A stretch of 11,653 nucleotides of DNA, taken from a virus. Taxonomy: Duplodnaviria > Heunggongvirae > Uroviricota > Caudoviricetes. Position 1 is the stretch's first letter; the number at the start of each line of letters is the position of its first letter. Below, in pieces: positions 5,286 to 6,177 of this stretch. The notes under the pieces are model-generated. The model ran no database searches and was not told the DNA's origin. It was given only the letters and a program-made list of their open reading frames with translations. Position numbers and translations under genes: made by a program. Location of the stretch: IMG/VR virus record IMGVR_UViG_2579778842_000018, positions 1 through 11,653 of that record; one strand, 5' to 3'.

Positions 5286-5331
5286 AGCTATTGCCTGATA
5301 TTTATTTCAGATAATAAATATTCACCCATAA

Positions 5332-5384
5332 GGTAACAAAAATCAAGGATAGTTACCTATGAGGTGCATTTACCTGTTGGGTAA
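5332..5384. promoter_or_regulatory. Operator cluster in the divergent region between the Cro-like and repressor-like genes (OR-like)
   Basis: 5370-5384 TTACCtgttgGGTAA; 5353-5367 TTACCtatgaGGTGC (imperfect); GGTAAC half-site at 5332-5337. A candidate minus-strand promoter (TTGATT-N17-GAATAT) overlaps these sites. Confidence 0.45.
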
Positions 5385-5439
5385 TATTGCTTTAAATTGA
5401 ATCATCTACTGATTCATATATGAGACGATTTTCCAGAAA

Positions 5440-6024
5440 ATGAAAAGTATCCAGGACGTCCGCAGGCAAAATCTCAACGACTTGATCGACCGTGAATTCA
5501 ATGGTGTTCAGACGCGGATGGCAGAAAAACTTGGAACTCAGGCAAATCTGGTAAACCGCTGGGCTCTTGGCAAGAAGGTTATCGGCGACCAAGTTGCACG
5601 AAAAATTGAAGCTGCCGCCAATAAACCCCGTAACTGGCTTGATATCGATCGCTCGCTTTCTCAGGAAGGTTTTCAGCCTGTCGGCCCAAGCGACATTGGC
5701 CAGCTGGCGGCTCACAACCTGGAACGCTGGATGAGCGAAAGCCGCGACCTTTCAACACAGGGAAAACTTCACCGCGCATCCGGCGTAGCCCAGGTGACAA
5801 TCAGCCGCCTGTTAAACAATGAGGTCAGCGTTTCCATTTCCACCCTGGAGAATGTTGCATCCGCATTCGGGCGTCACGGCTATGAATTACTGATTCACCC
5901 GCACGACCCTGCGACCATCAACTATGATCGCTCGCGCTACGCATTGTTACCCGAAACCGAGAAAGCAAAGATCGAAAGTTACATTGAATTTGTCATCAAC
6001 CAGAACGAAAAAAACAAACAATAA
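5440..6024 (+). CDS. Tandem-HTH phage repressor-like protein (CI-like by position; no evident S24 peptidase domain), 194 aa
   Basis: Two HTH-like segments: QTRMAEKLGTQANLVNRWALGKKVIGDQVARKIEAA and LHRASGVAQVTISRLLNNEVSVSISTLENVASAFG. Flanked on both sides by the palindromic operators and followed by a terminator. No SD sequence before the ATG. No Ser-Lys/GDSM-type autoprotease motif seen. Confidence 0.7.
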   Translation: MKSIQDVRRQNLNDLIDREFNGVQTRMAEKLGTQANLVNRWALGKKVIGDQVARKIEAAANKPRNWLDIDRSLSQEGFQPVGPSDIGQLAAHNLERWMSESRDLSTQGKLHRASGVAQVTISRLLNNEVSVSISTLENVASAFGRHGYELLIHPHDPATINYDRSRYALLPETEKAKIESYIEFVINQNEKNKQ

Positions 6025-6044
6025 AACCATATTTTTCAGTAAGT

Positions 6045-6068
6045 AAGCCGCCTTATGGCGGCTTTTTT
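6045..6068 (+). terminator. Rho-independent terminator after the repressor-like gene
   Basis: AAGCCGCC-TTAT-GGCGGCTT followed by a T6 tract (6063-6068), 20 bp after the TAA stop. Confidence 0.65.
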
Positions 6069-6081
6069 ATTGCCTATTCGA

Positions 6082-6158
6082 TTACCTAACGGGTAATTTT
6101 TTTAACTCATATCTATTGACATCAAACCATATACGCATAATTATTACCTCAACGGTAA
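6082..6158 (+). promoter_or_regulatory. Early promoter with two flanking operators (PL/OL-like) driving the plus-strand early operon
   Basis: Consensus -35 TTGACA (6116-6121), 17-bp spacer, -10 AATTAT (6139-6144). Operator TTACCtaacgGGTAA (6082-6096) upstream of the -35 and TTACCtcaacGGTAA (6144-6158) overlapping the -10 and start site; extra GGTAAC half-site at 6167-6172 overlaps the RBS. Confidence 0.5.
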
Positions 6159-6177
6159 CAGACCGAGGTAACAAGTT

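Follow-up and report, generated by a model that had tools for sequence, protein, structure and literature searches.

We propose, with a probability of about 0.85, that the 194-aa protein encoded by the 11,653-nt stretch of DNA analysed here (the window) is the immunity repressor, Rep, of a phiV10-type Uetakevirus prophage, and that it is switched off by an SOS-controlled antirepressor, Ant. The repressor role, the two helix-turn-helix (HTH) motifs and the antirepressor mechanism of the family are already known from GenBank, the PDB and published papers. The scientific addition is therefore small, since the gene, its HTH motifs, its role and the family mechanism have all been described before.

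The 194-aa protein is 100% identical to gp40 of phiV10 and to its counterparts in 12 other phage records, and ORF21 of phage vB_EcoP_ZX5 (ZX5) is the same protein. The phiV10 record describes gp40 as a "putative transcriptional repressor, two HTH motifs" and notes its similarity to the repressor of epsilon15, gp38, a homologue with 42% identity by tblastn and 43% by alignment. The prophage in the window nevertheless differs from phiV10 by a Ser/Thr phosphatase gene next to int and by separate exo and recT genes. The initial annotation had recognized a lambda-like gene order, running from a Cro-like gene through a divergent region, the repressor, a terminator and a promoter to an early operon. 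All of these elements could be located, as follows:

5014..5033, minus strand: terminator 3' of the Cro-like gene, from a sequence scan and annotated in phiV10 too
5055..5285, minus strand: Cro-like gene, 76 aa, matching phrog_35 'transcriptional repressor' (E=9.5e-13) and equal to phiV10p41
5311..5346, minus strand: predicted promoter of the Cro-like gene (PR equivalent), TTGTTA-17-TATTAT at 5339-5311
5440..6024, plus strand: rep, immunity repressor of the SPC32H Rep family, 194 aa, from phage identity, PDB match and Pfam/PHROG
5440..5655, plus strand: Rep N-terminal HTH DNA-binding domain, residues 1-72, approximate bounds, from YdaS/DUF739/HigA-type HTH matches at 20-71
5713..5910, plus strand: Rep second HTH_3-like domain, residues 92-157, approximate bounds, from HTH_3 at 106-147 and alignment to 5D4Z
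5911..6009, plus strand: Rep C-terminal module (CAD/TetDloop), residues 158-190, from gapless alignment to the C-termini of 5D50_A and 5D4Z_A
6045..6064, plus strand: intrinsic terminator at the end of the rep transcript, with an 8-bp stem, 6 GC and a T-run
6116..6144, plus strand: predicted sigma-70-like early-left promoter (PL equivalent), TTGACA at 6116-6121, 17 nt, AATTAT at 6139-6144
6178..8388, plus strand: early-left operon under PL, with two small ORFs, a PD-(D/E)XK exonuclease and RecT, from ORFs, Pfam and PHROG

The Cro-like protein has no Pfam or PDB match and was named from PHROG 35 and its place in the gene order. It is separated from rep by a divergent region of 154 bp, in which an alternative −35 element for its promoter (TTGATT, 5346-5341) lies within a block that is invariant in five phages. 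On the other side of rep, phiV10 carries an annotated terminator at the place homologous to 6045-6064, the PL-equivalent promoter has 10 of 12 consensus matches in the scan, and epsilon15 and Tyrion show the same arrangement at their early-left promoters. The gene order around rep is common to the window, phiV10, epsilon15, Tyrion, a Klebsiella phage and SPC32H.

The message of lambda cI is leaderless, and the rep message likewise lacks a Shine-Dalgarno sequence. The absence of such a motif, which had been remarked on at the outset, is real: none lies within ~15 nt of the rep ATG (GAGACGATTTTCCAGAAAATG), although most neighbouring genes have one, and its lack in the 4-5 relatives compared makes it a conserved trait. 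A consensus scan and the five-phage alignment revealed no convincing promoter positioned for a start at the ATG (5440). Two stretches could be −10 elements, a TAATAT that is invariant in the alignment and borders OR3, the operator closest to rep, and a weak GATTTT 7 nt 5' of the ATG, but a credible −35 is missing from both.

Sequence comparison identifies Rep as a full-length homologue of the repressor of Salmonella phage SPC32H, which was solved together with a chain named 'Anti-repressor protein' (5D50). In a phmmer search of the PDB, Rep residues 1-190 align with residues 2-197 of 5D50_A 'Repressor' (E=4e-42), and Rep also matches 5D4Z_A, the C-terminal part of SPC32H Rep (E=4e-20), which we take to comprise residues 92-198 of that protein. 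Identity to SPC32H Rep is 43% overall, with 53% in the DNA-binding domain, 32% in the middle domain and 52% in the C-terminal module. A single-sequence AlphaFold2 model of Rep was too poor for use (mean pLDDT 44.9, pTM 0.22).

The profile search suggested in the initial annotation returned an HTH_3 match (Pfam, E=1.2e-9) in two stretches, the top one at residues 106-147, a segment that HTH_26, LacI and HTH_31 match as well. The N-terminal segment is also HTH-like, matching YdaS_toxin at 21-61 (E=3e-4, under the gathering score) and DUF739 at 20-55 in Pfam, and residues 1-76 match two PHROG repressor families, phrog_5736 (E=2.8e-11) and phrog_12107 (E=4e-10). Two HTH segments are thus present at the sequence level, as first described. 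According to published descriptions, only the N-terminal domain of SPC32H Rep is the DNA-binding domain, the HTH-like middle domain dimerises, and the C-terminal module tetramerises and binds Ant. By analogy, Rep residues 92-157 are probably a middle dimerisation domain (MDD), and residues 158-190 would, by homology, serve in tetramerisation and Ant binding. This third, small C-terminal module was missed in the initial annotation. The sequence NLVNRW in the N-terminal domain, invariant in five homologues, is likely the recognition helix. BLASTP of the N-terminal against the C-terminal half of Rep detected no similarity and no sign of a recent internal duplication.

The suspected absence of a protease domain was borne out, with no match to Peptidase_S24 (PF00717) or a LexA-like family in Pfam at E<=1 or in NCBIfam. 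Furthermore, the solved repressor that aligns to the entire length of Rep has no protease domain, and the C-terminal half of Rep is homologous to a non-protease structure.

The DNA around rep contains repeated copies of a predicted Rep operator, the 15-bp palindrome TTACC-N5-GGTAA. A motif search allowing <=1 mismatch found seven sites in the window against 0.27 expected, a number reached in 0 of 200 shuffles, and all seven are intergenic, at promoters or directly after a terminator. Together with an additional site bearing two mismatches, the candidates, assigned by motif, position and the annotation of a relative and given without strand, are:

2941..3017: second operator pair, 2941-2955 and 3003-3017, upstream of a DUF1064 gene, from the motif search
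4985..4999: single operator-like site, 1 mismatch, just 3' of the cro terminator, from the motif search
5322..5336: predicted OR1 (TCACCCATAAGGTAA), within the cro-type promoter, from the motif search
5353..5367: predicted OR2 (TTACCTATGAGGTGC), 2 mismatches, from the motif
5370..5384: predicted OR3 (TTACCTGTTGGGTAA), closest to rep, from the motif search and five-phage alignment
6082..6096: predicted OL2 (TTACCTAACGGGTAA), 20 nt upstream of the PL −35, from the motif search
6144..6158: predicted OL1 (TTACCTCAACGGTAA), from the last −10 base across the expected start site, from the motif search

OR1 overlaps the −35 and spacer of the minus-strand promoter at 5339-5311 and is conserved in five phages, while in epsilon15 and SPC32H the site homologous to OR2 forms a palindrome without mismatches. 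The centres of OL1 and OL2 are 62 bp apart, with equal spacing in epsilon15, where the counterpart of OL2 is annotated 'protein_bind: repressor'. The centres of the pair at 2941-2955 and 3003-3017 are also 62 bp apart, and in our reading this pair may have PL-like geometry, with a −35 TTGATT at 2983-2978 and a −10 TTTAAT at 2960-2955. The operator-like site at 4985-4999 is kept in phiV10 and in the E. coli prophage of ETEC1747. The half-sites are the same, and in the same places, in the window, epsilon15 and SPC32H; the central 5 bp differ between SPC32H and the window. In the epsilon15 record the palindrome is marked as a repressor-binding site at the early-left promoter and at several other promoters genome-wide, whereas the three sites of the rep/cro divergent region, present in epsilon15 as in the window, are unannotated.

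How such a repressor might be lifted was anticipated in the first reading of the sequence, which suggested an antirepressor or another signal. The homology to a repressor solved with its antirepressor supports the antirepressor, as do the genomes of phages and prophages with an identical Rep, in which a perfect LexA box precedes a homologue of Ant, and the roughly 100-fold induction of a lysogen of one such phage by mitomycin C. Protein p24 of phiV10 matches 5D50_E 'Anti-repressor protein' (E=2.9e-46), and a perfect CTGT-N8-ACAG LexA box lies directly upstream of ant in phiV10 (CTGTGTATTTATACAG), the ETEC1747 prophage (TACTGTATAAATATACAGT), epsilon15 and SPC32H. Ant is also encoded by the ETEC1747 prophage, whose Rep is identical and which matches the window at 99.1% over 80% of the window's length. 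In the GenBank record of SPC32H the syntenic genes bear the names rep and ant, and in the window's relatives, as in SPC32H, ant is divergent from the tailspike/tail-fibre gene. Among complete E. coli genomes, rep is found in 537 of 5426 (~10%) and ant in 529 of 5426; among phage records, Rep occurs in 37 and Ant in 35, mostly the same Uetakevirus records. The window itself contains no Ant by tblastn, the expected locus being ~20-30 kb away in the prophage, and no perfect LexA box; its five one-mismatch matches compare with 3.4 expected by chance. The near-identical prophages and the genome counts suggest that the window's own prophage also has ant. Against the proposal, Rep shares only 43% identity with its SPC32H counterpart, and 32% in the middle domain, whereas Ant is 88% identical to SPC32H Ant; binding of the E. 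coli-type Ant to this Rep is no more than plausible.

These data, read with the SPC32H switch (Kim & Ryu 2013 J Virol; Kim et al. 2016 PNAS; 5D50, 5D4Z) of the same genus, Uetakevirus, lead us to propose a model in which the N-terminal HTH of Rep would bind the 15-bp palindromes, as homology and sequence suggest, and the second HTH-like domain would dimerise the protein. Rep may thereby cover the Cro-type promoter through three sites between rep and the Cro-like gene, the early-left promoter through two sites 62 bp apart that bracket its −35 and −10, and further early promoters, so that lytic transcription stays off. The C-terminal ~35 residues would, by homology, provide both tetramerisation and a docking surface for the antirepressor. 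Induction would then proceed indirectly through the host SOS response, along a route of which parts have been shown in relatives: DNA damage would lead to cleavage of LexA and its departure from the box at the promoter of ant, predicted to be a small (85-aa) gene that lies beyond the window in another part of the prophage and points away from the tail-fibre gene. Tetrameric Ant would bind Rep and split the DNA-binding tetramer into dimers, allowing the early promoters to fire. In published descriptions, SPC32H Rep is a tetramer of DBD/MDD/CAD architecture and an Ant tetramer binds two Rep dimers, and a paper citing Kim and Ryu 2013 states that Ant synthesis in Salmonella prophages is under SOS-LexA control. 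The structure determined is that of SPC32H Rep with Ant, and the mechanism of the E. coli Rep is read from it by homology.

Experiments on phages with an identical Rep bear on several alternatives to this model. Overexpression of ORF21 in ZX5 abolished free phage and lowered endolysin and holin transcripts by ~99.97-99.99%. This shutdown of lytic genes by the identical protein argues against a role for the ORF as an accessory HTH regulator or antitoxin-like protein, with the true immunity repressor encoded elsewhere. Weak, sub-threshold matches to HigA, HipB and VapB models in NCBIfam and a 'VapI antidote protein' label in one phage record would fit such a role, but no toxin gene adjoins the ORF, which is divergent from a Cro-like gene between operator-covered early promoters and is homologous to the SPC32H repressor, making this reading barely tenable. 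Mitomycin C raised the titre of ZX5 lysogens from 10^7 to 10^9 PFU/mL, ~100-fold, and a DNA-damaging microcin induced prophages of the phiV10 species 21- to 47-fold. Taken alone, SOS-inducible lysogens would fit equally well with RecA*-stimulated self-cleavage of Rep through a hidden protease or cleavage site of divergent sequence within its C-terminal half. We regard this as extremely improbable: the Pfam and NCBIfam searches returned no Peptidase_S24 match, a solved homologue consisting of an HTH DNA-binding domain, an HTH-like dimerisation domain and a tetramerisation module covers all 194 residues, and SPC32H Rep reportedly stays uncleaved during SOS.

A different effector is conceivable in a protein with a Bro-N domain whose gene lies immediately 3' of ant, acting instead of Ant or alongside it. 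Overexpression of ZX5 ORF4 (Bro-N) lowered the prophage titre ~1000-fold and rep transcripts by 75%, and the C-terminal ~76 residues of the ETEC1747 Bro-N protein share 42% identity with Ant (E=4e-13), so that the protein could dock on the Rep surface that Ant uses. In phiV10, a working temperate phage, however, the Ant-like part of the Bro-N region is split over two reading frames; the Bro-N gene stands behind a terminator with no LexA box found directly upstream, whereas 35 Uetakevirus records retain both the small ant and its LexA box, among them those of SPC32H, where ant is the annotated antirepressor. We therefore think it unlikely that the Bro-N protein is an effective antirepressor here. 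Similarly doubtful is a true tandem-HTH Rep in which both segments bind DNA on a composite operator. Its second segment does outscore the first on DNA-binding profiles (HTH_3, LacI, HTH_26), but in published descriptions of the solved homologue the middle domain dimerises and the N-terminal domain alone binds DNA; the operators are simple 15-bp palindromes that suit a dimer with one type of HTH, and the half-site and NLVNRW do not vary among relatives, whereas identity in the middle domain falls to 32%. The sole 'anti-repressor' experiment in a phage with an identical Rep used ZX5 ORF4 and not the small Ant.

Rep as modelled here, a repressor inactivated by Ant, shares its map position with lambda CI and P22 C2; in each case a cro-type gene diverges from the repressor gene, and the operators sit on promoters of the PL and PR types. 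Those repressors and LexA combine an HTH with Peptidase_S24, and because Rep has no S24 domain, no RecA-stimulated self-cleavage is predicted for it. Unlike S24 repressors, Rep would form dimers through an HTH-like domain and tetramers through a small module at its C terminus. The indirect SOS logic, in which a LexA-repressed small antirepressor inactivates a non-cleavable repressor, is shared with the Gifsy and Fels-2 prophages and with Tum of coliphage 186, although Uetakevirus Ant is reported to be structurally distinct from those antirepressors. Rco/Rap of the Bacillus plasmid pLS20 resembles Rep in its N-terminal HTH DNA-binding domain, its C-terminal p53-like tetramerisation (TetDloop) and its relief by a partner protein. 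Rco, however, lacks the middle HTH-like dimerisation domain and regulates conjugation, and its antirepressor senses a peptide signal rather than SOS.

The phiV10 genome contains ~14 palindromes of the Rep operator type, some of which precede int, ant itself and the genes for lysis and structural proteins. Tentatively, and with considerable doubt, we suggest that Rep may directly silence most phage transcription units through palindromes at nearly every promoter; if true, Rep does more than a lambda-like two-promoter switch. The epsilon15 annotation already marks part of the palindromes at many promoters. One Rep tetramer could bridge each 62-bp pair by means of two DNA-binding dimers formed in trans. 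Iterons of the replication origin within the O-like gene, TTACC-N6-GGTAA at 4315-4366, share their half-sites with the Rep operators, which could tie immunity to replication control.

Carrying the knowledge of SPC32H over to these elements would improve prophage annotation and allow prediction of E. coli prophages that are SOS-inducible without a cleavable repressor. In RefSeq, Rep is labelled 'helix-turn-helix domain-containing protein' and Ant 'hypothetical protein'.

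Rep, the 194-aa product of the ORF at 5440–6024 (plus strand), is 100% identical to phiV10 gp40, labelled in that record a putative transcriptional repressor with two HTH motifs; 12 further phage records carry the identical protein. Pfam returned HTH_3 (E=1.2e-9) over two stretches, the best at residues 106–147, along with weaker N-terminal HTH-type matches to YdaS_toxin (21–61) and DUF739 (20–55); no Peptidase_S24 or LexA-like family was among the Pfam matches even at E≤1, bearing out the initial annotation, which had described a tandem-HTH repressor lacking an obvious autoprotease domain. 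PHROG repressor families cover residues 1–76 and phrog_8 covers 10–186; NCBIfam gave weak HTH and antitoxin-type matches and nothing else. Full-length alignment pairs Rep with chain A of PDB 5D50, named "Repressor" (E=4e-42), and residues 89–190 also align with PDB 5D4Z (E=4e-20). Both entries are Rep of Salmonella phage SPC32H, in whose GenBank record the syntenic genes are called rep and ant.

Identity of Rep to SPC32H Rep
DBD, 53%
MDD, 32%
C-terminal module, 52%
whole protein, 43%

According to papers citing the SPC32H work, SPC32H Rep consists of an N-terminal DBD, a middle dimerization domain (MDD) and a C-terminal CAD, the last being the tetramerization and Ant-binding domain with a p53-like "TetDloop"; the protein switches between dimeric and tetrameric states and binds DNA in the tetrameric form, and a tetramer of the antirepressor Ant binds two Rep dimers, breaking the Rep tetramer. 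Two HTH-type segments are present as proposed; by homology the second (106–147) corresponds to the MDD and not to a further DNA-reading head. Binding of DNA by both segments, each of which has an HTH-type Pfam match, is disfavoured by the homologue's description and the simple palindromic operators. Alignment places a third module, overlooked in the initial annotation, at residues ~158–190. All relatives compared share NLVNRW, a motif of the N-terminal HTH, without change.

The proposed gene order (Cro-like gene, divergent rep, terminator, promoter, early operon) agrees with annotation and with terminator and promoter scans.

Features flanking rep
5055–5285, minus strand, Cro-like 76-aa gene (phrog_35, E=9.5e-13)
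6045–6064, intrinsic terminator ending rep, from sequence scan
6116–6144, strong sigma-70-like promoter (PL) following the rep terminator: TTGACA at 6116–6121, 17 nt, AATTAT at 6139–6144

The operon behind PL comprises two small conserved ORFs, a PD-(D/E)XK exonuclease and RecT. The palindrome TTACC-N5-GGTAA, allowing ≤1 mismatch, occurs 7 times in the window versus 0.27 expected, and none of 200 shuffles reached 7.

Predicted operators
5322–5336, within the Cro-type promoter
5353–5367, two mismatches in the window, perfect in epsilon15 and SPC32H
5370–5384, between rep and the Cro-like gene
6082–6096 and 6144–6158, either side of PL, the second starting at the last −10 base
4985–4999, directly past the cro terminator
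2941–2955 and 3003–3017, a perfect pair upstream of the DUF1064 gene (2593–2937, minus strand)

In both the PL pair and the 2941–3017 pair the operator centres lie 62 bp apart, a spacing that one Rep tetramer may span, and the layout is the same: operator, ~19 nt, TCTATTGA, 17 nt, and a −10 joined to the second operator. By analogy, the 2941–3017 pair would carry a promoter built like PL, and Rep probably controls directly the early unit on the DUF1064 side, beyond the terminator after the P-like gene. Tyrion, epsilon15 and SPC32H carry identical operator half-sites at the corresponding positions. The epsilon15 RefSeq record marks seven palindromes as repressor-binding ("protein_bind: repressor, lysogeny"), at the early-left promoter and four further places genome-wide; as these are annotated already, the operator finding is not new. 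In phiV10, the Rep palindrome occurs ~14 times, with 12 of the 14 sites intergenic; these precede int, the holin/lysis genes and the first structural genes, and flank ant on both sides. The other two fall inside terS as annotated, within 80 nt of its start.

Functional data exist for the same protein in phage vB_EcoP_ZX5: overexpression of ZX5 ORF21, whose sequence is identical to Rep, left no free phage and lowered endolysin and holin transcripts by ~99.97–99.99% (Li et al. 2022). ZX5 lysogens yielded 10^7 PFU/mL spontaneously versus 10^9 PFU/mL with mitomycin C, and a DNA-damaging microcin induced phiV10-species prophages of gut E. coli isolates 21- to 47-fold. An SOS-inducible repressor without an autoprotease matches exactly the prediction of a LexA-Ant route. 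Inactivation of Rep by self-cleavage is very unlikely, as there is no S24 domain and a non-protease fold covers every residue. SPC32H Rep reportedly stays uncleaved during SOS, and one base change in the LexA box of the ant promoter is said to make Ant constitutive.

The guess of antirepressor-based induction is supported by the homology to SPC32H Rep and by Ant lying behind a LexA box in relatives. The window itself contains no Ant by tblastn and no excess of LexA boxes over chance. In phiV10, whose Rep is identical, p24 runs divergently to the tail-fibre gene; its 85-aa product matches "Anti-repressor protein", chain E of 5D50 (E=2.9e-46), and a perfect LexA box, CTGTGTATTTATACAG, lies ahead of the gene. 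The ETEC1747 prophage of E. coli, again with identical Rep, encodes an Ant equal to that of phiV10 at 84 of 85 residues, with the box TACTGTATAAATATACAGT; epsilon15 and SPC32H are arranged likewise. A Salmonella prophage review lists Kim & Ryu (2013) with other examples in which LexA self-cleavage triggers production of an antirepressor, which inhibits the repressor by protein-protein contact. Rep homologues occur in 37 phage records and Ant homologues in 35, mostly the same Uetakevirus records. Across E. coli and Salmonella phages Ant is 84–88% identical, Rep 43% (middle domain 32%), and operator half-sites are unchanged.

Just downstream of ant lies the gene for a Bro-N protein that may be a second antirepressor under different regulation. 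Over its C-terminal ~76 residues this protein shares 42% identity with Ant (E=4e-13; ETEC1747 prophage, 35290–35517), and it is the "ORF4 anti-repressor" of Li et al., overexpression of which reduced lysogeny in ZX5. The Ant-like part is divided over two frames in phiV10 (19578–19777). Two proteins of the Ant type may be present in many phiV10-like phages.

The initial observation is confirmed and its interpretation supported, and the finding is already known: the identical protein has been annotated and tested, a homologue solved with its antirepressor, and the operators annotated in a relative. Of 5426 complete E. coli genomes, 537 carry rep and 529 carry ant with its leader, but PGAP (e.g. 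NZ_CP122722.1) calls rep only "helix-turn-helix domain-containing protein" and ant "hypothetical protein"; knowledge from SPC32H has yet to enter routine annotation.

As reported initially, no Shine-Dalgarno-like motif is present in the 20 nt ahead of the rep ATG, whereas most neighbouring genes have one. This absence (5415–5442 and homologous positions) is kept in all five aligned phages despite diverged upstream sequence, which suggests a special initiation mode. TACAAT lies 4 nt before the ATG in epsilon15 and SPC32H. For the proposed leaderless mRNA, a consensus scan and five-phage comparison found no credible promoter starting at the ATG.

Tandem iterons lie at 4249–4388, within the O-like/DnaT-like replication gene (3837–4688, minus strand): ATCCCGTTTTTGGGAT-type repeats (24-bp period, 2.6 copies) and ATTACCGTTTTCGGTAAC (18-bp period, 3.8 copies). 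The 18-bp iterons share the half-sites of the Rep operators, with a 6-bp spacer (3 matches versus 0.16 expected), and also encode the NGNVTE repeats of the O-like protein. By analogy to lambda O, this is probably a replication origin within the initiator gene.

The sequence of the window is that of the early region of a Uetakevirus prophage resembling phiV10 and epsilon15, in the opposite orientation to the phiV10 record. Nineteen phage records match at least 80% of segment 5000–6400, at 76.7–99.4% identity, 16 of them E. coli phages at 96.9–99.4%, and the ETEC1747 prophage is 99.1% identical across 80% of the window. The latter adjoins guaA with int at the junction, in agreement with the attachment site reported for ZX5, the guaA 3' end. 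A lambda-type Ser/Thr protein phosphatase gene (9615–10394) adjoins int, in the position occupied by a DUF1382 gene in phiV10, a cargo difference among otherwise near-identical prophages. The exonuclease (6629–7450) and RecT (7447–8388) are separate genes with an ATGA overlap in the window and the ETEC1747 prophage. The annotated "RecE-RecT fusion" of phiV10 differs from the window by one additional A within an A-run close to the junction (window 7429) and may reflect a frameshift or sequencing error.
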